Below are positions 698 through 49,063 of a DNA stretch of 64,000 bases, one piece after another. The notes under the pieces are model-generated. The model had not been told where the DNA came from. It ran no database searches and saw nothing but the letters and a program-made list of their open reading frames with translations. The number at the start of each line of letters is the position of its first letter. The stretch's first letter is position 1. The stretch spans positions 1-64,000 of the forward strand of contig JAVZLK010000003.1 of assembly GCA_038883795.1 (NCBI GenBank), in the 5' to 3' direction. This DNA is from Candidatus Bathyarchaeia archaeon. GTDB taxonomy: Archaea > Thermoproteota > Bathyarchaeia > Bathyarchaeales > Bathycorpusculaceae. Both the position numbers and the translations under genes were made by a program.

Positions 698-1417
698 GTG
701 GATGCTATAATGCGAAAGGAAAGCCTTAGGACTTTTGTGGAAAATTTTGGAAAAAGATACTCCGAAACATTAGGCATAAACCTAAAAAACGGCAAAGATG
801 AAGAAATTTTCAAGTGGTTTTTCGCCTCAATCCTTTTCGGCGCTCCAATAACAGAAACATCAGCCATTAAAACCTACAAGTGCTTCCAAGAATATGATGT
901 GTTAACGCCTAAACGGATACTCGAAACTGGATGGGATGGGCTCGTTAGAATATTGGATGAAGGAAGCTACACGCGCTACGACTTCAAAACCGCAGACAAA
1001 CTCCTTGAAGTTATGCAAAATCTCATCAAAAAATACAATGGAAGCCTAACAGTCCTTTACAACCAAGCTTTAGACACGCAAGACTTGAAAAATCGCCTAA
1101 AAGATTTGGGGAAGGGCGTTGGAGAAGTGACAGTGAACATATTCTTAAGAGAACTCCGTGATACTTGGGATAAAGCCAAACCAGAACCCACAAGCCTCGT
1201 TTTGCTTGCAGCCAAAAACCTTGGAATAATCAAGAAAGAAAAACATGAAACTGCCCTACAACAACTAGAGAATTTTTGGCTCGAAAACAAGGTTGAGGGA
1301 AAATCTTTCATAAATTTCGAAACATCGCTGCTAAGACTTGGCAAGGATTTTTGTAGGAAGGGTAAATGCGCCTCTTGTCCAGTTAAAAGTGAGTGCTCTG
1401 CTCCGAAGGCGCCTTAA
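698..1417 (+). CDS. HhH-GPD superfamily (endonuclease III-like) DNA repair protein with C-terminal 4Fe-4S motif
   Basis: Helix-hairpin-helix LGKGVGEVT and C-terminal C-x4-C-x2-C-x5-C (CRKGKCASCPVKSEC). Confidence 0.7.
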   Translation: MDAIMRKESLRTFVENFGKRYSETLGINLKNGKDEEIFKWFFASILFGAPITETSAIKTYKCFQEYDVLTPKRILETGWDGLVRILDEGSYTRYDFKTADKLLEVMQNLIKKYNGSLTVLYNQALDTQDLKNRLKDLGKGVGEVTVNIFLRELRDTWDKAKPEPTSLVLLAAKNLGIIKKEKHETALQQLENFWLENKVEGKSFINFETSLLRLGKDFCRKGKCASCPVKSECSAPKAP

Positions 1418-2162
1418 CATAAGTGATAACTTCTATTGGGCATTCTCCAGAAAGTTTAAGCTTCTTCTTCCACTCTTCACCCACCGCTATAAGCGAGAAA
1501 AATCCTGAAATCTCAGCCTTCGCTTTCCTAACAAGATTCACCAAAGCCGCTTGGGTTTCTCCAGTCTTAATCATGTCATCCACGATTAAAACGCTGTCCC
1601 GCTTTTTAATGGCATCCTTAGGAATGTAAAGCGTCATAGTTACACCAGAATCTCTAAGCGCGTAAGTTTCTTCCAAAAAAGCCTTAACCCCAACTTCCTT
1701 GCTTCTCTTCGCAATTATGAGGTTCACTCCCAAAGCGCTTGCAACCATAGTCGCTAATGGAATACCATCCACAGCAGCAGTCAAAACTTTTGTAACCCGT
1801 TTTCCAGCAAAATTTGCAAGGGCATGATTAGCCGCTTGTTGTAGAATGTTAAAATCCCCAACAATGTCAGTATTATCAAAATAACCATCCTCATCAAACC
1901 TTATCCTATTACGCAATTCAGCCTCCAAACCAACAAGCTTATTTAAAACTTTCCAAAGCTGCCTCGCCCTCGCAGTATTAGGCAAAACATGCCCCTTAGC
2001 ATATCTGCTCAAAACAGTAACGGGCAAACCAGTTTTGGAAGCTAACTCACGATAGGTTATATTCCGCTTATACTTTGCAGTCCTAAGCATCTCAATAGTC
2101 ATCAAACGAAGCTTCAACTCATCCACATGCGTGCTCATAGCAACCCCCTTATACACTGACAC
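1383..2162 (-). CDS. HTH + phosphoribosyltransferase domain protein (PurR/Apt-like regulator)
   Basis: N-terminal HTH (TYRELASKTGLPVTVLSRY) and PRPP-binding motif VLIVDDMIKTGET. Confidence 0.8.
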   Translation of the reverse strand: MSVYKGVAMSTHVDELKLRLMTIEMLRTAKYKRNITYRELASKTGLPVTVLSRYAKGHVLPNTARARQLWKVLNKLVGLEAELRNRIRFDEDGYFDNTDIVGDFNILQQAANHALANFAGKRVTKVLTAAVDGIPLATMVASALGVNLIIAKRSKEVGVKAFLEETYALRDSGVTMTLYIPKDAIKKRDSVLIVDDMIKTGETQAALVNLVRKAKAEISGFFSLIAVGEEWKKKLKLSGECPIEVITYVKAPSEQSTHF

Positions 2163-2231
2163 GTCAATCTTAAAGCGTTTACCATTTATTATTGCAATAC
2201 TAATTTAAAATTTCCGTTCCAAAACGAACAA

Positions 2232-2326
2232 TGGCGGGTCCGCTGGGATTTGAACCCAGGATCTCCGGCTTAGAAGGCCGACGCGCTTTTTGGAATTTTG
2301 GCTTATCCAAGCTGCGCCACGGACCC
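2232..2326 (-). tRNA. tRNA-Arg(TCT) with ~17-nt non-canonical D-loop intron; CCA encoded
   Basis: Acceptor stem GGGTCCG/CGGACCC+GCCA; anticodon arm TCGGC-CTTCTAA-GCCGG; T-arm CTGGG-TTCAAAT-CCCAG; extra sequence between the D-stem halves GCGC...GCGC. Confidence 0.9.
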
Positions 2327-2445
2327 ACAAGATGTGATAGTGGGAAGCATAGATAATAATTTTGTCTGTTTTGGTTAATGGACTTTATAGAAAAATGTTA
2401 CTTAAAGCTTTTAAATAAGCGCTAAATCATTTTTACTAGGGAGGG

Positions 2446-2832
2446 GTGAAGGTGTCGGAGATTCAACGGTTTGATATCCCCATCCCTTTGGTAAATTATC
2501 TATTCCTAATTAGGAACCGTAAGTCTCCGTATTACGATATAGTCCAATTTCTTTTGAAAGAGATGGAGATGCACTACGAAAAAGTGGGACAAGGCTCCGA
2601 TGTTATTTATACTATAAATCCAAGAGTTTTACAGGAGGAAATTGAAAAGAGGGTTAGAAGTGAAAAATTGACTACGGTGAATGTTTGTCGTACTATTTTG
2701 GCTCTCTTGTACGGAAGTAAACTTCGGGAGGAGAGGGACTTTTACGTTACAACAACTAGCAGCGGGCGAAGAAATTATCACATTAGGGTTAATGAACGCA
2801 CTTTAACTTCTATTTCCAGATTACTGCTATGA
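2446..2832 (+). CDS. Hypothetical protein, possibly winged-helix DNA-binding
   Basis: 128-aa ORF with SD-like GGGAGGGG and upstream TATA-like TTTAAATA; helical segment followed by a beta-hairpin (FYVTTTSSGRRNYHIRV). Confidence 0.6.
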   Translation: MKVSEIQRFDIPIPLVNYLFLIRNRKSPYYDIVQFLLKEMEMHYEKVGQGSDVIYTINPRVLQEEIEKRVRSEKLTTVNVCRTILALLYGSKLREERDFYVTTTSSGRRNYHIRVNERTLTSISRLLL

Positions 2833-2839
2833 CCGTGAA

Positions 2840-5722
2840 TTATTCGATGTAAATTGCTGGTCGAAGCGGCATAGCTATCATTGCTCTTTGTCGAGGGTCA
2901 TAAATTTCTCCGTCATCTTCGTTGTAGACTATGATTTGTGCTTTGAATCTTTCACTTAAAAATTCCTTTGCCTCTTCAATTATCCTTTTTTCGTCAAGTT
3001 CTCCTATTCGCAAAATGCTTTCTCTTCTATTTTCTGATATCAAGTTTATCTCTTTTAGAATTCTTGGAGTGAATTTTGCGATTTCTTGAATGTTTTCCTT
3101 TAAGTCCTTTTGCGTGCTGAATTCTTTCATAAGTTCGCTTATTTTTACTTCTCCATGTTTTGATTTCTCTAAAATTTTCTGGTAGACTTTCCATTTCCAT
3201 GGGCTGGCTGTGTAATAGAATATTTTTTGGGGAGTAATTTTTGTTGCTTTTAAGACGTTTAACGTGTCCTCAATCAACTCTTCTATGAATTTCTCTTTCT
3301 CCTCCGCTATTATATCTATTTGCTTTTCATCTATTTTTGGCCATTCTGCGAGTGAGATGAAGCCTTCTTCTTTCATTTCGCTCCACAATTCTTCACATAT
3401 GTGCGGTGCGAATGGTGCGAGCATTTTTAGCCATGTTTTTAGGGCTTCTTTTAGGGTTTTTGATTTCATTGTCTTTTTTCTTTGTATGTACCAGCGGAAG
3501 TCGTTCCATGTTTCGAAGAAAGCGATTTCTAGGGCTGTTCTTGTTTTCATTTCTTCCAAATTTTTTGTAACTTCTTTTATGCGGTGTTGTAGGGTGCTTA
3601 TAAGCCATTTTTCCAAGTGTCCAGTCTCCGTGGTTTTTGCTTGTTCTATTATGTTTTTTGCAAAGTTGTAGAATGTTTCGAGTTTACTTTGTATTTCCTT
3701 AACGTTTTCGCTTCTCCAGTCTGGGTCGTCCATTCCTTCAGCGGCTAATAGTAATGCGCATCTTGTGGCGTCTGCTCCATATTTTTCTATGGCTTTTTTT
3801 AGGGGTATGAAGTTTCCTAGATGCCTATGCATTTGTTTGCCTTCTATCATTAGCATGCCGTTTACTCCTATTCCTTTTGGCCAATGTTGTGGTGGGAAGA
3901 GTGCTGTGTGGTGGAATATGAAGAATGTTAGGTGGTTTGGAACGAGTTCTTTTGCTGATACCCTTAAGTCGACTGGGTACCAGTATGAGAATTCTTTTCG
4001 CATTTCTTCCAAGATTTCAGTTTCTATTCCCGCTTGTGTGGCTATTTTTTCTGCGCTTCCTTCTCCATAGAAAATGTAGTCAAAAACTTCTTTTGTCAAG
4101 TTTTGTGGTTTTATGTCCTTTTCCTTTATGTGTTTGTTTATTGTGTAGAAAGCCATGTAGATTGTTGAGTCGCTTAGGGTTTCTATAATCCATCCTTCTC
4201 CCCATGGTAATGGCGTGCCAAATCCGGTTCTTCTTGCGCAAGCCCATTCTTTTAGCCAGTCAATTACTGTTAGGAACCATTGGGTTGCTGTTTCTGGGTA
4301 AATTTTCATCTGGCTTAGGGCTTCTTTTGCTTTTTCTTTCCATTCCGGGTCTGAATAGTTTAGAAACCATTGATCCTGTAAGACTTTGACGATGCATGGC
4401 GTTAGACAGCGGCAAACCACTGGTTGTGGCAAGTCATACATGGAGTCTACGATTCCGCGGTTTTTGAAATCTTTTATTAGGGTTTCTTTTACTTCTCTAA
4501 CCATTTTTCCAGAATATTCCATACAATTTTCTTTTAGGATTCCACCATGAAATTCTTTTTTATAGAGTATTTTTGTTGCTTCTTCAGCCTTGGGGTCGTG
4601 CTGATCTTTAGCGCCTAGTTGCTCCACTATTTCTATGGCTGGATATTCGCCGAATCCTTCAACTTTGATGAGGGAGATCGGTTTTATTTTCTTAACAGTT
4701 TCTGGGTCTATGCCAAATTCTCGCAATACTTCTGGTTTTTCTTGTAAGTCTTTTAACGCTAGCCAATCGTAGGGAGCATGCGCTGGGACGCTATAAACAA
4801 CGCCTGTTGCCTGTTTAGGGTTGACAAACCATCCCGGCAATATGGGAAATCTTTCTTTTGTGACCGGGTTTTCGAAGGTTTTTCCTATAAGCTCTCTCCC
4901 TTTTAGTGTTCGCTTTATTTTCACGTTTTTTCCTTGTTCTTTCAACTTTTGGGCTGCTTCTTCGCTTATTATCCAAGTTTCATTGTCCACATGGGCTTCT
5001 ACGTAGGTTGCGATTGGGTTTATCCACATGTTTGTTACGCCGTAAATTGTTTCTGGGCGGAAGGTAGCTGCTGGCAAAATCGTCTCATGGTTTAGTTTGA
5101 ACTTTATTAGCGTGTATTCTTCTGGGGTTACGCCTTCTCCCACTTGGCGGTCATGGTCTCCTGTTGGGCTTTGGCATTTTGGACACCAAACCACCGGATG
5201 TGTTCCCATGGAAACGTAGCCTTTTGCTCTGAGGTTTTCGTATTGCCATTCTATGAATTTTTGGTATGTTGGCATTATGGTGTTGAATTCTCTTCTCCAA
5301 TCAATTGAGAAGCCAGCCTTCCTCGCGGCTGTTCGTCCGTCGTTTGTGTAATATGTTGCCATACAAATTGGGTCAACAAATTTTTTGAGCTCTTCTTCTG
5401 GAACACCGTCCACTTCTCTTAAAACTTTTATGAATTCTTCATCGCCCTTTGCCACACGTTCGCTTGCGCCTAACAGTGGTTGGCCTGTCCAGTGCCATGC
5501 CCATGGCCAAAGCACGTTATAGCCTTGCATTCTTTTGAAGCGAGCATACGCGTCTACGCGGGAGGCTGTGAAGCCGTGGCCCACGTGAAGCGGGCCGTTC
5601 ATGTATGGGTATGGGAAGGTTATGAAGAATTTCTTTTTGTTTGGGTCTGGGTTTGCCTCGAAGATTTTTGCTGTTTCCCAGCGTTTTTGCCATTTTTCCT
5701 CGATTTTCTTTAAAAATTCCAT
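2840..5722 (-). CDS. leuS: Leucine--tRNA ligase (archaeal/eukaryal type)
   Basis: PYPYMNGPLHVGH (HIGH motif), editing domain ATFRPETIYG, ETLSDSTIYMA, C-terminal AMPLRPAIYIE. Confidence 0.97.
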   Translation of the reverse strand: MEFLKKIEEKWQKRWETAKIFEANPDPNKKKFFITFPYPYMNGPLHVGHGFTASRVDAYARFKRMQGYNVLWPWAWHWTGQPLLGASERVAKGDEEFIKVLREVDGVPEEELKKFVDPICMATYYTNDGRTAARKAGFSIDWRREFNTIMPTYQKFIEWQYENLRAKGYVSMGTHPVVWCPKCQSPTGDHDRQVGEGVTPEEYTLIKFKLNHETILPAATFRPETIYGVTNMWINPIATYVEAHVDNETWIISEEAAQKLKEQGKNVKIKRTLKGRELIGKTFENPVTKERFPILPGWFVNPKQATGVVYSVPAHAPYDWLALKDLQEKPEVLREFGIDPETVKKIKPISLIKVEGFGEYPAIEIVEQLGAKDQHDPKAEEATKILYKKEFHGGILKENCMEYSGKMVREVKETLIKDFKNRGIVDSMYDLPQPVVCRCLTPCIVKVLQDQWFLNYSDPEWKEKAKEALSQMKIYPETATQWFLTVIDWLKEWACARRTGFGTPLPWGEGWIIETLSDSTIYMAFYTINKHIKEKDIKPQNLTKEVFDYIFYGEGSAEKIATQAGIETEILEEMRKEFSYWYPVDLRVSAKELVPNHLTFFIFHHTALFPPQHWPKGIGVNGMLMIEGKQMHRHLGNFIPLKKAIEKYGADATRCALLLAAEGMDDPDWRSENVKEIQSKLETFYNFAKNIIEQAKTTETGHLEKWLISTLQHRIKEVTKNLEEMKTRTALEIAFFETWNDFRWYIQRKKTMKSKTLKEALKTWLKMLAPFAPHICEELWSEMKEEGFISLAEWPKIDEKQIDIIAEEKEKFIEELIEDTLNVLKATKITPQKIFYYTASPWKWKVYQKILEKSKHGEVKISELMKEFSTQKDLKENIQEIAKFTPRILKEINLISENRRESILRIGELDEKRIIEEAKEFLSERFKAQIIVYNEDDGEIYDPRQRAMIAMPLRPAIYIE

Positions 5723-5852
5723 AAAACTTTCTGAATTGGTTTGTGGGATATTAAAGGTTTTGTTTTCACTGACAGAGAACGCTATTCCTCACGTTAAACA
5801 CCAACATTAAGCATGGCAAAACTCACATTAATCCTTTACTCTCTTTTCCTAA

Positions 5853-8654
5853 TTATTTGGGTTTTAATTGTTTCTTCAAGATTTCTTCAGCTTTCTTAAC
5901 TGCCTCTTGTAACTTTTCGATTTTTGTTCCTCCGCCTTGGGCGAAGTTTGGTTTTCCACCACCTCCGCCGCCTATAATTGCCGCTGCTTCTTTTACGATT
6001 TCGTTTGCGTTTACACCCTTTTCGAGGGCAGCCTTACCAACCATAACCATAATCCTCGCATTTTTCCCATCATTTCCATAAAATATTGTAACCGTTGCAT
6101 CGTCTTTTTTGATTGTTTCGTTGGCTGTTTGAACCATGCGGTCAACATCAATAAAATCTCGAAAATCACGGATTACCACTTTGACGCCGTTTACTTCTTT
6201 AATTTTCTCGGCTGGTTTTGCTCCTAAACCTGCGCTTTCGCGTTCTGCTAATTCCTTTATTAGCCTTCTTCTTTCTGCTAAGGCTTCCTTATAGTCTTTC
6301 ACAAGTTTCTCAGCTGTTTTGTCTAATTTTTCTATTGGAGCGTTCAAAATTTCCGACAATTTCCATAGCAGTCTTTCATTTTCCTGTACCGTCTTTAAGG
6401 CTGGAATTCCAACAGAATAAACAAGTCTTTCAACACCATCTTGAATCCTTTCCGTGTGAATTATTTTTATAAAACCAATCTCGCCTGTACTCTTCAAGTG
6501 AGTTCCAGCACACGCTTCAACATCCCAATCCCCAGTTTTTACCACACGAATTTCTTTGCCCGGAACCGCACCGCCTTGATATAGCCTAAAGCCATAGCGG
6601 TTTTCTGCTTCGCTTCTCGGCATCCAAAGGGTTTCCACAGGCATATTTTTTAGAATTGCTTCATTTGCCAAAGTTTCTATTTTGTGGATTTCTTCTGGCG
6701 TTAATCGACGGTAATGGGATATGTCCAGTCTCGAGGTTTCGATGCCCTTTTGTGTTCCAAACTGCCAAACATGCTGTCCCAAAACTCGTCTTGCAGCGCC
6801 ATTGACGAGGTGCGTCGCCGTATGCGCCTTCATTAAGCTGTACCGCTTCTCCCAGTCAATAACACCCTTTACTATGCTGCCCTCTTTCGGAACAGTTTCG
6901 CCTTTAATTTTGTGGACTATTATTTTGCCAACTTTTTTGACGTCAACAACCTCAACCCTTTTTCCATCGAATAGAAGATAACCCGTGTCCGCTGGTTGTC
7001 CCCCACCCTCTGGATAAAAGCATGTCTCATCAAGAACCACATATTCATCGTCTATTACTTTGATAACTGTTGCATCAAACTCTTTCATGTACTGGTCCTG
7101 ATAATACAATGGTATTGTTTGAGGGAGTTCCGAAACTTCTTTTTCAAGCCATTCTTCGGGCTTAACCTCTTCCTCCACGGGTTTGGTTGCTTGCATGTGC
7201 CTTTCTGCGATTAGGGCATAGAAGTTTTCTGGGATGTTCACTTTTAACCCCTCTTCTTCTGCGATTTGCTTTACAATTTCTGGTGGAAGCCCATGAGAAT
7301 CATAAAGCTCCGTTAAAGTTTCCACAGGAATTTCATGCGCCTTTTTGGTTTTCAATTCGCTGGATATTCGCTTAACAAGTCCCTCGCCCCTCTTTATTGT
7401 TTCTTGGAATTTTTCGTTTTCAACTGAAAGCATTTCCATTATTTCGTCTCGCATCTCCTTAAGGTGGGGATAATCCTTAGACCAATAGCTAATTTGCATG
7501 TCCATAATGTCTGGCAATTTTTCTGGGGCTCCAAGCATCTTTAGCAGTCGGTAGATTCTGCGGAAAAGCAGTCTTGCCAAATAGCCTTCTTGAATGTTTG
7601 ATGGAACAACGCCCTCAGAAAGTATGAAACTTAAACATTTCGTGTGGTCAGCCACAGCGAAAGCATTTTCTATGGGCGTAAGAAAAGCGTCTAATTCCTC
7701 AACTTTCACCCCAACAATTTCCGCCACTTTCCTCCTAACTTCCCACAGGCTTGCTGTTTTATCTAAACTCACCAAGCCAGAAACTCTTGCTATTTTCGCC
7801 AACAAATCCTTGTCGATGCTGGTCATTCCAACCATTTCAAAAATCTTGTCAAGCAAATCTCCATAAACTGCATGGAAACCGCTGAGGGCACCTTGAGAAA
7901 GCCATGTGAAACGGTCAATACCATAACCAGTGTCAACAGTTCTTATAGGCAACTTAACAAATTCGTTATCGACAACCTTGTATTGCATAAAAACAAGAGT
8001 TGCAAGCTCCAATCCTCGAACAATAGTCTCTAAACATGGACCAGCGTTTCCGCCACCAGACCAAACTTCTTCCTTGTAAACAATTTCCTCAGATTTAATA
8101 CCCAATTCCTTTGTAGCAAACTCATGGTGATACCTTACGGTTTGGTCTTTCCAATAAACCTCCTTGTCTGGATAATTAAATGCGTGATGTCCACCCATTT
8201 CAAAAACGGTTTCATACTTCCCAAAGGTTGGACCAGTGTTGGCAATGTCCACCAAACGAATGCAAGGCTGAACAATCACAAGGGGGTTTGCCGGTGGCGG
8301 CGCAATTCCCTCTGTTACGTAGGGCTGAAAATCGATTATGCTTGCATGTGTTAGGTAAATGTCTTCTCTCCATCGGGCTACGACAGGATAAGGCTTTATG
8401 CGGGTATGTTTATGCCTTTCAAAAAAGGATAGGAAAGCCTCTCGCATTTCGCTAAAAGTGTAGCTTTTCTTTGTCGGTGGGTTCCCTATAAAAGTGTAAA
8501 CGGCGCAACCTTCTCTTCTTGCTTCTCCACAAGTTTCCTGCTCTGGATTTTGCGTCCAAAAATAATCTCCACATTTTGGACAAAGCTTCCTAACATAACC
8601 CATTTCCTTAAAGAATGGAAGGCTGTACTCCTCTGCTGGAAACTTTTTCTCCAA
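5853..8654 (-). CDS. alaS: Alanine--tRNA ligase (archaeal type)
   Basis: N-terminal Zn finger, YPVVARWR, ASIIDFQP, DTGYGIDR, editing motifs HTATH and CAGTH, C-Ala GGGGGG. Confidence 0.97.
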   Translation of the reverse strand: MEKKFPAEEYSLPFFKEMGYVRKLCPKCGDYFWTQNPEQETCGEARREGCAVYTFIGNPPTKKSYTFSEMREAFLSFFERHKHTRIKPYPVVARWREDIYLTHASIIDFQPYVTEGIAPPPANPLVIVQPCIRLVDIANTGPTFGKYETVFEMGGHHAFNYPDKEVYWKDQTVRYHHEFATKELGIKSEEIVYKEEVWSGGGNAGPCLETIVRGLELATLVFMQYKVVDNEFVKLPIRTVDTGYGIDRFTWLSQGALSGFHAVYGDLLDKIFEMVGMTSIDKDLLAKIARVSGLVSLDKTASLWEVRRKVAEIVGVKVEELDAFLTPIENAFAVADHTKCLSFILSEGVVPSNIQEGYLARLLFRRIYRLLKMLGAPEKLPDIMDMQISYWSKDYPHLKEMRDEIMEMLSVENEKFQETIKRGEGLVKRISSELKTKKAHEIPVETLTELYDSHGLPPEIVKQIAEEEGLKVNIPENFYALIAERHMQATKPVEEEVKPEEWLEKEVSELPQTIPLYYQDQYMKEFDATVIKVIDDEYVVLDETCFYPEGGGQPADTGYLLFDGKRVEVVDVKKVGKIIVHKIKGETVPKEGSIVKGVIDWEKRYSLMKAHTATHLVNGAARRVLGQHVWQFGTQKGIETSRLDISHYRRLTPEEIHKIETLANEAILKNMPVETLWMPRSEAENRYGFRLYQGGAVPGKEIRVVKTGDWDVEACAGTHLKSTGEIGFIKIIHTERIQDGVERLVYSVGIPALKTVQENERLLWKLSEILNAPIEKLDKTAEKLVKDYKEALAERRRLIKELAERESAGLGAKPAEKIKEVNGVKVVIRDFRDFIDVDRMVQTANETIKKDDATVTIFYGNDGKNARIMVMVGKAALEKGVNANEIVKEAAAIIGGGGGGKPNFAQGGGTKIEKLQEAVKKAEEILKKQLKPK

Positions 8655-24588: not shown

Positions 24589-24905
24589 GGCTGGCGATGT
24601 TGGCTGTAACCCGCCTTTCGTTTTAGGTGGCATTCGACTAATCGGGCTACCCGCGCCTCTGGGTAGATTCCTCACAGGCGTCTGTTTGCCCTTTCCACTT
24701 GCAGGGCGGCCGTTTCACCGCTTCGCATCCAGCATTCTCAACAACTTAGCATGTATCATTGGCAACTGCTGGATGGACGTTTCGTTTCTGCTCCGTTGCC
24801 AAGGCTCTCGCCTTACACCCTTGCGGGTGTTGCAATTCTACTTGTGGGCGGAGTTTCCTCAAGCCTCCTTTGAGGCTCGAAAGCCACCCGCCAACTTCGC
24901 CAGCC
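24589..24905 (-). ncRNA. rnpB: RNase P RNA
   Basis: P1 terminal pairing GGCTGGCGA-GTTGGC / GCCAAC-TCGCCAGCC; conserved regions GAGGAAACTCC, GCAGAAACG, GGTGAAACGGCC, AACGAAAGGCGGGTTA. Confidence 0.93.
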
Positions 24906-42510: not shown

Positions 42511-42571
42511 CCTTTAAATTAAACTTTTAAACTATAACATGGTTAGCATTAATAAAAATAGTGTGAAATCA

Positions 42572-43477
42572 ATGAGTGTTTATGACAAAGAAGCCCTAAA
42601 AAAACTTCGGTTGTCTGGAAAAATCCTCCGTGAAACAAGGGAGGAAATAAAAAATTTCGTGCAAGAAGACATGCCAATAATCCAAATATGCGAAAAAGCA
42701 GAAAACCTCATACGCAAGAAAGGCGGAAAACCAGCCTTCCCATGTAACGTTTCAATAAACGAAATAGCAGCACATTACACGTCACCTCCAAATGATGAAC
42801 GTAAAATTCCAAAAAACTCCCTTGTCAAAGTGGACATAGGCGTCCACGTAGACGGTTATGTAACAGACACGGCAGTTACATTATGTTTTAACCCAGAATA
42901 CGAAAGCCTCGTGGAAACGGCTGAACAAGCATTAAAAACAGCCATAGAAAACATCCGCCCAGAAATTTCCACATCAAAATTAGGCGCTATTATAGAGAAA
43001 ACCATAAAATCCCGCGGTTTCAAACCAATTTCAAACTTAACTGGGCATCAAGTTGGCAGATATCTTGTGCATGCTGGCACATCAATCCCAAACGTTTCCC
43101 AATTGTCATTCTCAAAAATTAAATTGGGCGAAGTTTACGCCATTGAACCCTTCGTAACTCTTTCAGAGGCTGCTGGTCGAGTAAAAGACGGCGAAGAAGT
43201 CACAATTTTCCGTTTTCTCAAATCAAGGTCGCTAAAAAATCCATATTCCAAAAAGCTTCTAAAGCATATCGAGAAAAACTTTAGAACATTGCCCTTTGCA
43301 GAACGCTGGTTAAAAAACGTGGTTCCACAAACCCATTATCCAGAAGCCTTCAAAGAATTAATAGTTTCCAAATCCATAATGGGCTATCCAGTATTCATCG
43401 AAGCCAGCAGAAAACCCGTGGCACAAGCCGAACACACAGTTTTGATAGTTGAAGACGGTTGTGTTGTCCTCACCTAA
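42572..43477 (+). CDS. map: Methionine aminopeptidase type II
   Basis: AFPCNVS, AAHYT, DIGVHVDG..DTA, NLTGH, AIEPF, QAEHT. Confidence 0.95.
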   Translation: MSVYDKEALKKLRLSGKILRETREEIKNFVQEDMPIIQICEKAENLIRKKGGKPAFPCNVSINEIAAHYTSPPNDERKIPKNSLVKVDIGVHVDGYVTDTAVTLCFNPEYESLVETAEQALKTAIENIRPEISTSKLGAIIEKTIKSRGFKPISNLTGHQVGRYLVHAGTSIPNVSQLSFSKIKLGEVYAIEPFVTLSEAAGRVKDGEEVTIFRFLKSRSLKNPYSKKLLKHIEKNFRTLPFAERWLKNVVPQTHYPEAFKELIVSKSIMGYPVFIEASRKPVAQAEHTVLIVEDGCVVLT

Positions 43478-45107: not shown

Positions 45108-45234
45108 TGGGGCTGCCAGCTTTCCCGGCTTCGCGTGGCCGAAGACCACACTACAACCGGGAACGGAGCACGGTTTAACTTCTGAGTTCGGAATGGGATC
45201 AGGTGGGTCCCGTGCCCTATGGCCGGCAAACCCC
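45108..45234 (-). rRNA. rrf: 5S rRNA (unlinked to 16S/23S)
   Basis: GGCCATAG...CCTGATCCCATTCCGAACTCAGAAGTTAAACC...; terminal helix GGGGTTTGCCGGC / GCTGGCAGCCCC. Confidence 0.95.
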
Positions 45235-45273: not shown

Positions 45274-46203
45274 TTAGCCTTTTTCTTTAATGATGGCTTC
45301 CCATATTCCGAAGCCGCCTACAGTTTCTGGGCGTTCTACCGGGTTATACCATCTTTTCTTTGTCCCAATTTTCGCCCGCATCTTCCACCCAAAAGATTTC
45401 GGCTCCTTCTCTATAATCTCTAATAAATTGTCTATTTTTTGGATTATCTCTTCTCGGTCTTCCTTTTTGATTTGTTTTGGGTCTATGTTGGCTTCGGAAC
45501 CAAATTTTTCGATTTCTGAAAGGAATATTTTGATTTTCTTGAGGTTTGATGTAGCTGTATACCAGAGTCCCCAGTCTTGAGCTAAAAGTTTTGCAATATA
45601 TAATGCGTCTATGCTTTCCTTTTCGCCTTTTTCTTTTATAGCGTGCGCTTTTAGCAGAAGTAAACAGTCTTTTAGGTCTTTTACGCTGAAGGCTTCCCAA
45701 ATCTGCAACTTCTCCAATAGCATGTCCGTCACGGTTATTGTGGGATAATCGAGTTCCAGTCTTCCCCTAAAATCAATGGGATGATTTGCCACCAACAACT
45801 TGTCAAAGAAAACATCCACGTAAAACCAGCCCTTCGGATGATAATATATCTGCCTTCCAGACGCCGCCGTGGAAAGCGTTATTTTCCTTTTAACATAGCC
45901 AATTTTGTCAAAGAAATCTTTCATTTTATCCCTATAACTGCCATAAGAGACAAAATCAATATCGCTATATTCTTGCCCCTCAATAACTCCGGTGCCAATC
46001 CTACCCAATTTCTGCGCAAAATCCCTATATTCTTGACAGTGAACTGCTATGCCCAACCCACCCAAAATCCTCAAAATTAACCCCTCCTGTCGGGTTTTCT
46101 CAACGATCTCTTGGGATTCACGCAAGAAAACCTCTGTGGGAACAATCCCCCTCCATTCTTCTGGCAGTTCCCGCTTAATTTCCTTTTTCAAAAGCCAAGC
46201 CAT
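45274..46203 (-). CDS. Nucleotidyltransferase-superfamily protein of unknown function
   Basis: LRILGGLG...YSDIDF...VDVF...DMLLEKLQI...KDLKD. Confidence 0.7.
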   Translation of the reverse strand: MAWLLKKEIKRELPEEWRGIVPTEVFLRESQEIVEKTRQEGLILRILGGLGIAVHCQEYRDFAQKLGRIGTGVIEGQEYSDIDFVSYGSYRDKMKDFFDKIGYVKRKITLSTAASGRQIYYHPKGWFYVDVFFDKLLVANHPIDFRGRLELDYPTITVTDMLLEKLQIWEAFSVKDLKDCLLLLKAHAIKEKGEKESIDALYIAKLLAQDWGLWYTATSNLKKIKIFLSEIEKFGSEANIDPKQIKKEDREEIIQKIDNLLEIIEKEPKSFGWKMRAKIGTKKRWYNPVERPETVGGFGIWEAIIKEKG

Positions 46204-46289: not shown

Positions 46290-46460
46290 GGGGCCGTAGT
46301 CTAGGAAGGTATGACGACGGGCTCCAGAATAGCCTAAAACGGGTTTGCGGACTGCACCATGCGGAATGAAGAAATTCTGGAGCGGTCATAGAGAAACCCG
46401 TAGGAACAGTCAAGCGCTGTTTCCGGGGAAAGGTCGTCGGTTCAAATCCGGCCGGCCCCA
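46290..46460 (+). tRNA. tRNA-Trp(CCA) with two introns (68 nt at 37/38, 46328-46395; ~29 nt at about 43/44, 46402-46430)
   Basis: Removing both introns gives a 74-nt cloverleaf: GGGGCCG...ACGGG-CTCCAGA-CCCGT-AGGTC-GTCGG-TTCAAAT-CCGGC-CGGCCCC-A. Both introns have BHB-like junctions. Confidence 0.9.
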
Positions 46461-46532
46461 CATTTTTAAGCAATTTCAAAGCAACGTTTAAGCGGCGGCT
46501 TCGCAAAAACAGAGCAAAAAACTTGCCTTTTT
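46446..46532 (+). repeat. attL-like: tRNA-Trp 3' core plus right arm (copy 1)
   Basis: 85 of 87 nt identical to 47886-47972; weaker similarity continues to about 46590 versus about 48030. Confidence 0.9.
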
Positions 46533-46617
46533 AGATTAACTACTTAGCATTAGAAATTAGATAACAGGTTAGCCGTTTAAATTTTACAAACAGCCCCCAT
46601 TTGTTAGCTGGCTACTA

Positions 46618-47016
46618 TCACCAAATACGTTTGACGCCCATCTTATCAAAAGCTGAATCAGTTGATATCACATCTGCATTGTACATTTTCGCAGCTGCGG
46701 CTATTAAAACATCAAATAGTCCTCCATGTGCCCTTCTATTTGCTGCCATATGCTCCGCTTCCGCTATAATAGAAGCTTCTGTGGGTATCAGCTTCTGTTT
46801 AGGAATTATTAACGCGATATTTCTAAAAATTCTCTCCCTCTGGGATGGTGGAAATTTACGTTTTCTTAGGACCAGATTGCATTCGTGCAGAGTTAAACAT
46901 AAGACAAAAATGTCATTAGCAGTACGGACCGAATAAAGATGTTGAACCGCTTTATTAAATAATGGATGCATTGGGTCAAGGGATGCTATTAAAACAACAG
47001 TATCAAGAATCTTCAA
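46618..47016 (-). CDS. vapC: PIN domain (VapC-like) toxin
   Basis: KILDTVVLIA, TLHEC, LFDVLIAAAA, ISTDSAFD: acidic PIN residues present. Confidence 0.88.
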   Translation of the reverse strand: MKILDTVVLIASLDPMHPLFNKAVQHLYSVRTANDIFVLCLTLHECNLVLRKRKFPPSQRERIFRNIALIIPKQKLIPTEASIIAEAEHMAANRRAHGGLFDVLIAAAAKMYNADVISTDSAFDKMGVKRIW

Positions 47017-47287
47017 GATTATCTTCCTTGCCGAATATTAAAGATAAGTATTCCTCAGCTTCATGATCTTCTTCTTTCCAATCCTTTAGCCGACCTTTCA
47101 CAATGGAATGCGTGTCAAGAATCGCCAATAAGAATAATTTATCGGGTAACCTTGAAAGAAGTTTTATCATTGCCTTGTTAATCGATGCGTAGGATTCAGC
47201 AGTGCTTTTCACACTGATTTCTAGCAGAGAATTTTCTAAGCCGCGAACGCGTTCAAAGGGAGCTGGAAGTTTTTCAACGATCCACAT
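47003..47287 (-). CDS. Putative antitoxin / hypothetical protein overlapping vapC
   Basis: Overlaps the vapC start; acidic C-terminus DWKEEDHEAEEYL; no clear DNA-binding domain. Confidence 0.45.
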   Translation of the reverse strand: MWIVEKLPAPFERVRGLENSLLEISVKSTAESYASINKAMIKLLSRLPDKLFLLAILDTHSIVKGRLKDWKEEDHEAEEYLSLIFGKEDNLEDS

Positions 47288-47708
47288 CGCCCTTTCTTTC
47301 TCCTTTTTGCTCTGTCATTTCCTGCATTTTCTTAAGGTCCTCTGCAAGAGATTTTAAGTTTTCGCCTAACTCTATTTTTTCCTCCGCAGAAATATCCATA
47401 ATCTTGTTAATTTTGGGTAAATAAGTATTCAATTTCATTAGTACCTGAATGAAGAAACCTAAAATCTCCGGAGGAGTTTCTTGCGAAATTTTGCCTAAAA
47501 GTTCCATAGAGTATTTCATAGCCTTTGTGGACGTTAAAAAATCATAGGCGGCTCGCTGATCCCTTTGAATCTCACCTATCTTTCTTGCAAAATCTCCATA
47601 AGCTTCCAATAAGTTAGTTATCACTTGGAAGATGCTACGGAAATCAATTTGTGAGAGTAATTTTTCTAATTCCTCCCTTTCACTTTCAGTCATGATAATT
47701 TCCTCCAA
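47274..47708 (-). CDS. Hypothetical helical/coiled-coil protein
   Basis: 144-aa ORF, first gene of the cassette 1 operon. Confidence 0.6.
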   Translation of the reverse strand: MEEIIMTESEREELEKLLSQIDFRSIFQVITNLLEAYGDFARKIGEIQRDQRAAYDFLTSTKAMKYSMELLGKISQETPPEILGFFIQVLMKLNTYLPKINKIMDISAEEKIELGENLKSLAEDLKKMQEMTEQKGERKGDVDR

Positions 47709-47856
47709 ACTAAATTTGTTAAAACACCTTTTTTATGTTTTGTATTCTAAATTCATTTTGTAAAACCCCGCAACTATATTAAGTATTTGCCTTTCTAAAA
47801 GTATTGTTAGTTTAATAAAATCGAGGTTTTAATTGATTTTGGCATAAATTCAACAG

Positions 47857-47972
47857 TTGTAAATTTTAAACGTAGGTTTTCATCTATCCGGCCGGCCCCA
47901 CATTTTTAAGCAATTTCAAAACAACGTTTAAGCAGCGGCTTCGCAAAAACAGAGCAAAAAACTTGCCTTTTT
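47857..47972 (+). repeat. attP-like junction: left arm + tRNA-Trp 3' core + right arm
   Basis: TTGTAAATTTTAAACGTAGGTTTTCATCT-ATCCGGCCGGCCCCA-CATTTTTAAG...; inverted repeat TTAAACGT (47866-47873) / ACGTTTAA (47924-47931). Confidence 0.85.
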
Positions 47973-48034
47973 CAAGTTGGCATCCAATAGGCGAAACTAA
48001 GAAATAGTTTGGTCGTTTGAATTTTACAAAAAGG

Positions 48035-48598
48035 TTAGGCTGGATATCTCTTTTCTTCAATGATGTTTCCTGCGACAGTTATCAAGATGTTGTTTCCGTT
48101 TATGGATACTACGCTATGTTTTCTTTCCATGTTGTAGAATCGCCAAAACTTTTCTGGAATTTTCAGTAATATTTTGTTCTCAGCTTTTTGTATTGGAATT
48201 TTTTCCAGAAAACAAGAGATTTCCTTCCATTCTGGCATTTCGCTGCCAGAAATTCCTATCGTTGAACTGTCTAATGCGTAAACGTAAGCGTATTCATTCC
48301 AAGCAGGGTTGGCTGCTTCTAGTAGTTCGGCTGATACTTCTATTACGTCTTTAGGTTTTTTTTCCTCCTTTGGATAGACAAGGTTTACTCGTCGGCCGTT
48401 CCTTTCGAGAACTTTAATTACAATTTTCCCTTCGTTCAAAAGCCTCCTTATTGAACCATCAACGCGGCCAGTCTTCCACTTCAGCTTTTTCCCCAACTCG
48501 TATTGAGAAAGCCCTGGAAACTGCTTTATAGTTTTCAGTAGGATTTCGTCTGATTCTTCGCCTCTTCGGTTCTTTTTCATCTCCGTTATTTCAATCAT
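48035..48598 (-). CDS. Winged-helix protein with C-terminal AbrB-like region
   Basis: IKQFPGLSQYELGKKLKWKTGRVDGSIRRLLNEGKI (wHTH); LKIPEKFWRFYNM resembles AbrB. Confidence 0.7.
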   Translation of the reverse strand: MIEITEMKKNRRGEESDEILLKTIKQFPGLSQYELGKKLKWKTGRVDGSIRRLLNEGKIVIKVLERNGRRVNLVYPKEEKKPKDVIEVSAELLEAANPAWNEYAYVYALDSSTIGISGSEMPEWKEISCFLEKIPIQKAENKILLKIPEKFWRFYNMERKHSVVSINGNNILITVAGNIIEEKRYPA

Positions 48599-48792
48599 AA
48601 TTTACTCACAGTCTCTTTCTGTCTCTCACTCTTTATGTTGTTGTTGGGATATTTAAATTTTTGGAATATTCCAAAAAGCTATACCATTAAGCACAAATAT
48701 CATAAGCCTTGCTAAATAGTATCTATGTTCCGATTCCAGCCACGAAAACGATGCTACCTCGGTCCAATAAAGCTTGATTCCCAACCAATCAG

Positions 48793-49008
48793 ATGGATAA
48801 GGATCATAGAAGCTTCGCAAGCAGAGAATGGATTGAAGGCCAAGTAAGATATGGCGAATGGATAAGCGACCACGGCAAGCCAAACCACTTCCAGATATAC
48901 ACAATAGTTTATGAAGGGACAAAGCCTATAACAGTCTTAATTAAGATAAAATTGCAACCCCAACAAGTTCTTGTTTATCATGCGCATGTTGTGCGAAAGA
49001 GAAAATAG
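48793..49008 (+). CDS. Small hypothetical protein (possibly the frameshifted 3' part of a gene starting at 48725)
   Basis: 71-aa ORF divergent from the wHTH gene; an upstream ATG-initiated frame (48725, MFRFQPRKRCYLGP...) overlaps it out of frame. Confidence 0.45.
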   Translation: MDKDHRSFASREWIEGQVRYGEWISDHGKPNHFQIYTIVYEGTKPITVLIKIKLQPQQVLVYHAHVVRKRK

Positions 49009-49020
49009 GTTATCTTAAGA

Positions 49021-49063
49021 TTGTAAGATTTAAACGTAAGTTTTCATCTATCCGGCCCCACCA
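49021..49063 (+). repeat. attR-like: left arm + shortened core + CCA
   Basis: TTGTAAGATTTAAACGTAAGTTTTCATCTATCCGGCCCCACCA matches 47857-47900 apart from 3 substitutions and a 4-nt CCGG deletion, and ends in CCA. Confidence 0.85.

Follow-up and report, generated by a model that had tools for sequence, protein, structure and literature searches.

Downstream of a tRNA-Trp gene of a hot-spring Bathyarchaeia archaeon, we found a region (positions 46290-49063) that is probably a two-member array of non-autonomous integrative cassettes, inserted at the 3' end of the tRNA gene and moved in trans. The region lies in a window of 64,000 nucleotides (nt), the whole stretch of DNA analysed here (assembly GCA_038883795.1, contig JAVZLK010000003.1), which belongs to a 2.18-Mb metagenome-assembled genome (MAG), referred to below as the host genome. 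This reading is carried by the anatomy of the array, by comparison of filled with empty sites, by the diversity of the cargo found between constant arms, by the spread of the cassettes across genera and by a lineage whose core matches tRNA-Tyr. The layout in the window, namely tRNA-core-right arm, left arm-core-right arm and left arm-core-CCA flank, is that of attL, an attP-like junction and attR, and consists of the following features.

46290-46460, plus strand: tRNA-Trp(CCA) gene, acting as attB (Rfam RF00005).
46452-46461, plus strand: core copy 1 inside attL, comprising the last 9 nt of the tRNA and one C (exact 10-mer CCGGCCCCAC).
46462-46593, plus strand: right arm (P') of cassette 1 (repeats in the window; alignment of 21 right arms).
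46574-46589: distal motif CGTTTAAATTTTACAA in the right arm of cassette 1.
47857-47891, plus strand: left arm (P) of cassette 1, with TTGTAAATTTTAAACG (repeats; left-arm alignment).
47886-47901, plus strand: core of the middle junction (P-O-P'), long form with an extra GGCC.
47902-48033, plus strand: right arm (P') of cassette 2 (repeats; arm alignment).
49021-49051, plus strand: left arm (P) of cassette 2 (direct repeat).
49052-49063, plus strand: attR, with core copy 3, then CA restoring the ...ACCA of the displaced tRNA end; the host flank starts here.

The core common to all three sites is the 10-nt sequence CCGGCCCCAC (at 46452, 47892 and 49052), which has just one further copy in the 2.18-Mb genome. 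There are exactly two copies of the 15-mer ATCCGGCCGGCCCCA, one at 46446 and one at 47886 (0.07 matches expected by chance), and none of 100 shuffles gave two matches. Around this core are arranged a right arm of about 133 nt and a left arm of about 30 nt. The right arms of copies 1 and 2 are 98% identical over 87 nt (85/87) and 81% identical over 148 nt, and the left arms of copies 2 and 3 are 92% identical over 37 nt (47857-47893 versus 49021-49057). Copy 3, which reads ATCCGGCCCCACCA and has no GGCC, is the only copy with CCA after it, and its flank, CCAAGGCATAAAC, resembles the empty-site flank of a related genome (G004), in keeping with a displaced tRNA end. The middle core is located between the inverted repeats TTAAACGT (47866-47873) and ACGTTTAA (47924-47931), and a longer inverted repeat is formed by TTGTAAATTTTAAACG in the left arm and CGTTTRAATTTTACAA at the far end of the right arm. 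The two units, 1440 bp and 1160-1164 bp in length, share their ends and carry unrelated cargo, in which a Pfam scan detected no recombinase domain. An earlier note on this DNA had described the repeated tRNA 3' core, the two arms, the CCA that marks the third copy as the displaced gene end, the attP-like middle junction and the two units of unrelated, recombinase-free cargo, and these measurements bear it out on each point. The same note had regarded the third copy as shortened, and this needs to be reversed: the 10-nt core is the normal form, copy 3 is a normal attR, and it is the 15-nt core of the middle junction that stands out.

The build of the arms became clear when 21 right arms and 14 left arms (15 left-arm rows collected, one of them blank) were aligned. 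Directly after the core, the right arm contains a conserved block of about 72 nt (CATTTTtAAGCAATT.CAAAGCAAc.TTTA.GC....TTcGCAAAAAc...TGCcTTTTt), followed by a linker of about 35 nt, which varies together with the type of cargo, and by the distal motif TTTAAATTTTACAA. The inverted partner of this motif, TTGTAAAATTTAAACG, is present in the left arm at 13 nt from the core, and ACGTTTAA, found 23 nt into the right arm, is a third and shorter inverted copy. In the left arm-core-right arm site, the inverted arm motifs appear as TTTAAACG; the two 16-nt motifs form an inverted pair at fixed distances from the core, and the inverted motifs sit 13, 23 and 113 nt inside the element ends. The right arm opens with a T-run directly after the tRNA and contains a small hairpin followed by a T-run (GCAAAAAACTTGCCTTTTT), both of which may terminate transcription between the tRNA and the cargo genes that converge on it. 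When the junction (47850-48040) was folded as DNA, it yielded a z of 0.10, with 105 of 200 shuffles folding equally well, and RNAalifold on 19 right arms gave -2.4 kcal/mol with just one 4-bp hairpin and no conserved structure. Because neither the DNA junction nor the RNA of the arm folds above chance, the arm motifs are more likely to serve as protein-binding sites than to be hairpins of the attC type or an RNA gene. A structured RNA in the right arm was also discarded, since its RNA fold is no better than chance.

These properties bear on the idea that the region is a true integron or an array of the CALIN (cluster of attC sites lacking integron-integrases) type, in which an IntI-type integrase acts on attC sites in folded single strands. 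Its small units, its cargo rich in toxin-antitoxin genes and a recombinase encoded outside the cassettes would all suit such an array, and archaeal integrons and CALINs with many toxin-antitoxin cassettes exist, as stated in the cited part of PMC9668308, where cassette content that varies between relatives is a further feature shared with the array described here. However, the arms are conserved in sequence, unlike attC, and show no conserved structure; the junction does not fold beyond chance; and there is no integrase gene next to the array. When empty and filled sites are compared, the limits of the insertion fall within the tRNA core CCGGCCCCAC and not at the outer inverted repeats, and neither an attC fold, an adjacent IntI-type integrase nor a crossover at an R' box (G/TT) was found. 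As far as integrons are portrayed in the same part of PMC9668308, the sites in the window also differ in being attP-like (a core with unequal arms) and anchored at a tRNA instead of at an attI site beside intI, and the cargo of this family mostly points towards the tRNA and seems to have its own upstream regions. We therefore give the integron explanation hardly any credence. The label integron-like, which the earlier note had attached to the array, is apt as a functional analogy; it does not extend to an attC-type fold, an adjacent integrase or the position of the crossover, which lies in the tRNA core.

The tRNA gene at the head of the array scores 39 bits against the Rfam tRNA model (gathering score, 29) and has an intron of 72 nt inserted in its anticodon loop and 30 extra nt in its variable region. 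Its anticodon loop is CTCCAGA, and the anticodon is thus CCA, which corresponds to Trp. ARAGORN misses the gene when introns are disallowed and miscalls it as Pro(agg) when they are allowed; the host genome contains three ordinary tRNA-Pro genes, and 46290-46460 is its sole tRNA-Trp candidate. For comparison, we used a sample of 200 genomes of the same family, representing 70 genera (locus codes of the form G### denote these genomes), in 161 of which a tRNA-Trp gene was detectable at 85-95% identity.

The 201-nt junction matched 27 of the 200 family genomes at E<=1e-3, and 16 of the 70 genera, including that of the host, are represented. Three of the weak matches consist of an unrelated 40-nt stretch alone; the right arm was detected at E<=1e-13 in 20 of the genomes. 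In the host genome, a BLAST search with the junction found the arms only at the window sites, the next match (E 0.0013) being an unrelated 40 nt, and the 16-nt arm motif with up to three mismatches gave 82 hits, among which good matches are confined to the four cassette sites. The att layout is repeated in 21 loci that could be oriented on a tRNA. On the tRNA side these read tRNA...TCCGGCCGGCCCCA|CATTTTTAAGCAATT... (right arm), then cargo, and on the distal side ...TTGTAAAATTTAAACGTAAGTTTTCATCTA|TCCGGCCCCA|CCA followed by the host flank. No arm was found away from tRNA-Trp or tRNA-Tyr loci in the 200 family genomes. Arrays are present elsewhere as well: G127 contains three units, and G125 and G063 contain internal junctions. 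The relatives' internal junctions (G127 twice, G125, G063) match the short-core form in five of five cases, four of them read directly and the second junction of G127 known from the match only.

Clustering of the open reading frames (ORFs) of the 21 loci, combined with Pfam scans that detected no integrase in the relatives' cargo, defined the following contents.

Eight loci, window unit 2 among them: type A, a winged helix-turn-helix (wHTH) protein and a small gene.
Seven loci by clustering, plus G086 by inspection: type B, a PBECR2-like nuclease and a DUF2283 protein, at times the DUF2283 protein alone.
Window unit 1: PIN set.
G049: MazE-type antitoxin and PIN (VapBC-like), in an 890-bp cassette.
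G127 unit 1: 147-amino acid (aa) ORF and 378-aa HepT-like protein.
G113: HicB-like protein and PLD-like nuclease.
G056: S-adenosylmethionine (SAM) methyltransferase, with diverged arms.
G063: 325-aa helix-turn-helix (HTH) membrane protein; 115-aa protein.
G043:C13: arms-only unit of about 130 bp.
G199: right-arm remnant.

At least eight cargo sets, plus the arms-only unit, are thus found between constant arms. Judging from these family assignments, the cargo consists mainly of small toxin-antitoxin or nuclease-type modules. In the 24 genomes examined, about 28 units were recognized; they range from 0.13 to 2.4 kb, and none contains an intact integrase. The earlier note had expected the same arms to occur in other Bathyarchaeia genomes around different cargo and in variable unit number, and had guessed at toxin-antitoxin or defence-like genes as the cargo; both expectations agree with what was found. 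In the arms-only unit (L054, G043:C13, oriented 3155-3316), the distal right-arm motif joins the left-arm motif at their common TTTAAA (...CCGTTTAAACGTAAG...), as if the cargo had been deleted between the two inverted motifs.

The cargo genes of the two window cassettes are as follows.

46618-47016, minus strand: cassette 1, PIN-domain (VapC-like) protein of 132 aa (Pfam PIN, E 3.4e-10, above the cut-off).
47003-47287, minus strand: cassette 1, 94-aa ORF overlapping the start of the PIN gene (ORF list).
47274-47708, minus strand: cassette 1, 144-aa ORF, first gene of the three-gene minus-strand set (ORF list).
48035-48598, minus strand: cassette 2 (type A), 187-aa protein; winged-helix domain, beta-rich C-terminal domain.
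48725-49008, plus strand: cassette 2, small gene divergent from the 187-aa gene (alignment with seven relatives).

The cargo of cassette 1 is therefore a set of three overlapping minus-strand ORFs. NCBIfam VapC models match the PIN protein weakly, and the 94-aa ORF, which has no family match in Pfam, NCBIfam or PADLOC, is a possible antitoxin by its position. Family matches of the 144-aa ORF were all below threshold. In cassette 2, the 187-aa protein has weak HTH_24/MarR matches in Pfam and was found by ORF clustering in 8 of the 21 loci. In its AlphaFold model (pLDDT 78.9), only residues ~8-81 match solved wHTH domains (VIA Z about 10); a structure search for likeness to recombinases matched the wHTH domain only, the C-terminal domain having had no separate search. 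The small gene encodes 94 aa in relatives, and the window copy is split by a G missing from a GGG run near 48800; public contigs of runs X1, X7 and X8 contain an extra G after 48800. The 187-aa wHTH family is a well-conserved accessory family with 287 homologues, the best 120 of which are 62-93% identical, and 26 of 401 class genomes, the host genome among them, encode a member. Twenty-five more distant copies are located neither at tRNA-Trp nor beside arms.

Two genomes of the window's genus allow a filled site to be compared with an empty one. In G122, the empty site reads tRNA...CCCCA|CCATTTGTTGGTTATTTTATTATGAAGTG, that is, CCCCA|CCA and then TTTGTTGGTTATTTTATTATGAAGTG, and in G049 the 890-bp cassette and its left arm are followed by the same flank. 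Seventeen of 20 further loci consist of a tRNA-Trp 3' end with CCA and no arm, although three of these 17 are 3' fragments at contig ends and four read CCG, CTA or TCA. On the right side, the identity available for insertion into an empty site is just 10-14 nt.

Cassette 2 also allowed a comparison of cassette divergence with genome divergence. The following nucleotide identities to the window refer to cassette 2 over about 1.17 kb and to the MetAP gene (window 42539-43477).

G119 (another genus): cassette 2, 96.3%; MetAP gene, 73%.
G103: cassette 2, 91.9%; MetAP gene, 77%.
G127: cassette 2, 91.9%; MetAP gene, 76%.
G096 (congener): cassette 2, 90.1%; MetAP gene, 85%.
G043: cassette 2, 89.1%; MetAP gene, no match.

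Cassette 2 is far better conserved than this housekeeping gene, and the ranking by cassette contradicts the ranking by genome. On the strength of these identities, cassette 2 has evidently spread horizontally between genera. In public runs, the summed contig depth of cassette 2, taken as a rough guide, is several-fold above that of cassette 1 or the flanks, which fits a cassette common to several populations.

A second target was identified in G025 and G113, two genomes of one genus, in which the same arms follow a tRNA-Tyr(GTA) gene. Here, attL reads ...CCTGCCCGCCCGA|CATTTTTAAGC, with the core CCCGCCCGAC in both genomes. In G113, attR has the sequence left arm...TCTAT|CCCGCCCGAC|CA; that of G025 is degenerate. 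Two of the 10 positions distinguish the Tyr core from the Trp core, and the Tyr core fits its own tRNA. The DUF2283 cargo of G025 is identical to tRNA-Trp-linked copies at 63 of 66 aa. Constant arms combined with a target-matched core are what a site-specific recombinase that needs identity in the overlap would produce. The cassette family has been retargeted between tRNAs at least once.

These sites can be set against an explanation without a dedicated recombinase, namely that cassettes are exchanged by homologous recombination after DNA uptake and that the arms are kept as terminators or promoters. The arms would offer 30-150 nt of homology, the right-arm T-run and the hairpin with its T-run could be kept for termination, and no helper enzyme was found in the genomes and contigs searched. 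However, the 10-14 nt of identity on the right side of an empty site, the base-precise P-core-P' junctions of tandem units in several genomes and the presence in G113 of a Tyr-adapted core at both att sites, as strand exchange within the overlap requires, all argue against it. The inverted 16-nt motifs at fixed core distances also look like protein-binding sites and not like terminators. We consider homologous recombination an improbable source of this pattern.

If the cassettes are instead moved in trans by a site-specific recombinase, the following course of events can be proposed. A circularised cassette would carry an attP of about 175 bp, consisting of the left arm, the 10-bp core CCGGCCCCAC and the right arm. 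Recombination of the cassette core with the identical tRNA end (...CCGGCCCCA plus the C of CCA) would insert the cassette, leaving the tRNA intact, without its encoded CCA and with the cassette T-run behind it, and the old ...ACCA end would be pushed downstream to become attR. A second cassette entering at a core would create a P-O-P' junction like that in the middle of the array. Because the cassettes encode no recombinase, the enzyme would have to be supplied from another place in the cell or by a visiting element. Most probably, it would be a tyrosine recombinase from the tRNA-targeting family, of which these genomes have many members. Toxin-antitoxin and nuclease-type cargo would also stabilise the array. 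Whether or not the array is active at present, its structure agrees with that of tyrosine-integrase elements in having a direct repeat of the tRNA end at both ends and a regenerated tRNA gene, and departs from it in that no integrase is encoded.

Three groups of observations weigh against an array moved in trans: the state of the assembly, the decay of several units and the outcome of the search for an enzyme. As for the assembly, cassette 1 is present in public contigs from three studies, but no public contig bridges 47909-48100 with cassette 1 on its left, and the link between units 1 and 2 comes from the MAG assembly alone. One public contig that covers 46503-47909 ends inside the repeat. 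No circular junction or excision product was seen in public assembled contigs, which cannot show rare forms, and this, like a part of the stretch that has no contig cover, provides no evidence either way. In addition, the 4 nt GGCC of the long middle core are absent in three (X1, X2 and X8) of the four public runs that cover 47888, and a 1403-nt contig among those without them matches cassette 1 exactly in every other respect. The long form of the middle core therefore reflects either a minor variant or an effect of assembly. The MAG itself, at 2.18 Mb compared with 1.2-1.7 Mb in congeners, contains 60 tRNAs and pairs of similar integrases (C4/C19, 98%; C33/C10, 97%; C58/C25, 87%), and because of its size, its tRNA number and these near-identical integrase pairs, it suggests a mixture of strains.

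A mixed MAG with an atypical middle core and no bridging public contig is what would be seen if two strain variants of a single-cassette locus had been collapsed into an artificial tandem, or if the tandem were a local duplication. In contigs of X1, X2 and X8, however, the left arm of cassette 1 runs into a core and then into the beginning of a right arm instead of the CCA flank, and therefore cassette 1 is followed by another arm-bearing unit in nature. Arrays have been assembled independently in G127, G125 and G063, and the 8-10 nt that an attR and an attL have in common would not suffice for a k-mer join. We thus judge an assembly artefact to be very improbable.

Decay is apparent in G063, G096, G199 and G043:C13, where units are degenerate or have no core, and in the frameshifted small gene of window cassette 2, and the cassette family could be largely fossil. 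In its full form, this explanation holds that full-size, integrase-bearing elements inserted at tRNA-Trp and then lost the integrase and most other genes, and that the units are their fossil remains, which are vertically inherited and no longer mobile. An integrase C-terminal relic in the G127 array (described below) would fit such an origin, as would the loss of the integrase after integration that is reported for archaeal elements in the cited part of PMC8371274. Independent decay would be expected to leave a spread of sizes, whereas none of the roughly 28 units exceeds 2.4 kb or has an integrase, and the non-coding arms are conserved across 16 genera while the cargo differs. The high identity of cassette 2 to that of another genus (96%, with MetAP at 73%) and its lower identity to that of a congener, the empty site in a congener and the tRNA-Tyr-core lineage with the same cargo also argue against a fossil array. 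On balance, a purely fossil array seems unlikely.

The third group concerns the enzyme that would move the cassettes. The contig of the window (C3, 139 kb) contains no match to PF00589, and tblastn with 26 integrase ORFs of the host genome found no integrase within about -3/+7 kb of the 21 loci except for a relic of 28 aa. No arm copy stands beside an integrase in the host genome or in the 200 family genomes. A pattern search for an integrase C-terminus followed within 20-120 nt by GTTTAAATTTTAC hit only 1 of 201 genomes, where it detected the same G127 relic. When extended to species-representative genomes, the pattern scan yielded 12 loci, eleven of which are Bathyarchaeia cassette ends and one of which belongs to Patescibacteria and has no arms. 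Four scans of viral contigs yielded 19, 0, 2 and 2 loci; the first 21 loci have no arms, and the two of the fourth scan were judged to be chance hits from their source alone. Among 12 loci from metagenome contigs, one is a plain attR and none is an arm-flanked integrase. Mobilisation in trans, as claimed in the earlier note, thus goes further than these searches, which found no arm-linked integrase in the host, family and species-representative genomes or in viral and metagenome contigs, and we retain it as the probable mode of movement.

In the host genome, 22 PF00589 matches are above the cut-off. Eleven of these integrases form one family (42-72% identity, with two near-identical pairs), and in ten of the eleven the 3' end lies 23-96 bp from a tRNA gene (Pro, Asn, Leu, Ser or Cys); none lies at tRNA-Trp, and the integrase on C45 has no tRNA nearby. 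The eleven related integrases were recorded on contigs C63, C35, C41, C59, C4, C19, C5 and C45, and on two contigs a tRNA-Pro(GGG) gene is located between integrase genes on both sides. This family is found in 149 of the 200 family genomes, so its co-occurrence with the arms is uninformative, and it was not found at E<=1e-40 in two arm-bearing genomes, G032 and G069; both facts belong with the points against movement in trans. Unit 1 of G127 is composite: behind a decayed left arm come the final 28 codons of an integrase from the tRNA-adjacent family (E 7e-9, 79% identity), with the distal right-arm motif 60 nt further on. Nowhere else in the material searched are the arms physically linked to an enzyme family.

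In G068, a different element, about 6.6 kb long (L118, G068:C6:80000-90000, about 889-7735), encodes a 318-aa tyrosine integrase of the tRNA-adjacent family at 911-1867. The element splits tRNA-Trp in its 5' half, with the common core AGGCAGGTATGACGAC; the integrase start codon lies inside tRNA-derived sequence, and the element brings a complete, differently spliced tRNA-Trp copy (1922-2087). A diverged mini-cassette is present at the 3' end of the same tRNA (7736-8061). The tRNA-adjacent integrase family does target tRNA-Trp, though at another core.

Among known systems, the closest are the cis-mobilizable elements (CIMEs) of streptococci. In the part of PMC5704250 that we cite, these have lost their integration genes, retain attL and attR, are found one after another at the 3' end of tRNA genes or other genes, can be moved by the integrase of a related element and are stacked by accretion. 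The window family shares with them the att sites kept without integration and transfer genes and the tandem position at a tRNA 3' end. According to the same part of that source, CIMEs are one-off decay products of large conjugative elements with a known partner, an integrative and conjugative element (ICE) or an integrative and mobilizable element (IME). The window family, unlike CIMEs so described, consists of 0.13-2.4 kb units with constant arms and interchangeable cargo in 16 genera of an archaeal host group. No autonomous partner element with the same arms was found in any collection searched, the G127 relic being the only trace.

Archaeal elements of the SSV and pNOB8 types, as presented in the part of PMC8371274 used here, have in common with the array a tRNA 3' target and a direct repeat of the tRNA end, and tandem integration at one locus and integrase loss after integration are reported for such elements. 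They differ in that the units described here are far smaller, have a 10-bp core, contain no integrase and involve no split integrase gene. The tycheposons of Prochlorococcus resemble the array in that serial integration at tRNA genes pushes older elements outwards, remnants pile up and the cargo adapts the host, whereas nearly all of them encode their own integrase and measure several kb to >10 kb, as far as the consulted part of bioRxiv 10.1101/2020.12.28.424599 goes. DDE transposons, miniature inverted-repeat transposable elements (MITEs) and IS200-IS605-type elements were also considered and rejected: the termini (ATTTTTAAGC... and ...TTTTCATCTAT) are not inverted repeats, there are no significant hairpins, and the apparent duplication is always the tRNA end.

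Cassette arrays at tRNA-Trp or tRNA-Tyr of Bathyarchaeia were mentioned neither in the titles and abstracts listed by literature searches nor in the main text of PMC9668308 and PMC10848311. The earlier note had proposed an undescribed system, which is too strong, since CIMEs are integrase-less, att-flanked stacks that are already known, as the cited part of PMC5704250 makes clear. The array is best filed with non-autonomous att-flanked stacking, with the constant arms, the exchangeable cargo, the two tRNA targets and the cross-genus spread as its new aspects. It is possible, though we hold this tentatively, that the cassettes form part of a dedicated Bathyarchaeia gene-capture system, which would be integron-like in its working and built from attP-type parts, with obligately non-autonomous cassettes, each made of a portable arm pair of about 175 bp and a 10-bp core re-matched to Trp or Tyr, and with a recombinase that is encoded elsewhere in the genome, never within a cassette, and both inserts and excises them. 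In that event, members of hot-spring communities would exchange small toxin-antitoxin and nuclease modules across genera. If active, the array would offer uncultured, streamlined archaea a cheap way of swapping one- to three-gene modules, mostly of the toxin-antitoxin and nuclease type, across genera; if fossil, the locus would still be a useful marker of strain variation. The same arms at two tRNAs, with two cores that differ at 2 of 10 positions, also represent a natural experiment on retargeting. To our knowledge, there is no genetic system for Bathyarchaeia, and the short, well-defined and conserved arms could serve to fish for the recombinase and, later, as an integration tool in this group.

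Other features of the window in the neighbourhood of the tRNA-Trp gene or further upstream are listed below.

45274-46203, minus strand: 309-aa protein, between the 5S rRNA and tRNA-Trp genes.
45111-45230, minus strand: 5S rRNA gene (78 bits), just upstream of the tRNA-Trp locus.
24595-24899, minus strand: archaeal RNase P RNA (191 bits), further upstream of tRNA-Trp.
2243-2287, minus strand: partial match to the Rfam tRNA model (positions 9-63) at 29 bits, equal to the gathering score.

The 309-aa protein was considered as an analogue of IntI and rejected, because it is the product of a conserved Bathyarchaeia gene that is unrelated to the presence of cassettes. It has no match in Pfam, NCBIfam or the PDB and no recombinase signature, and the best 120 of its 1497 homologues are 77-90% identical. 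Its GG...H...DxD motif, read by eye, is reminiscent of nucleotidyltransferases. The linkage of 5S rRNA and tRNA-Trp is present in G068 too, and the partial tRNA match at 2243-2287 could be a tRNA fragment or an intron-split tRNA.

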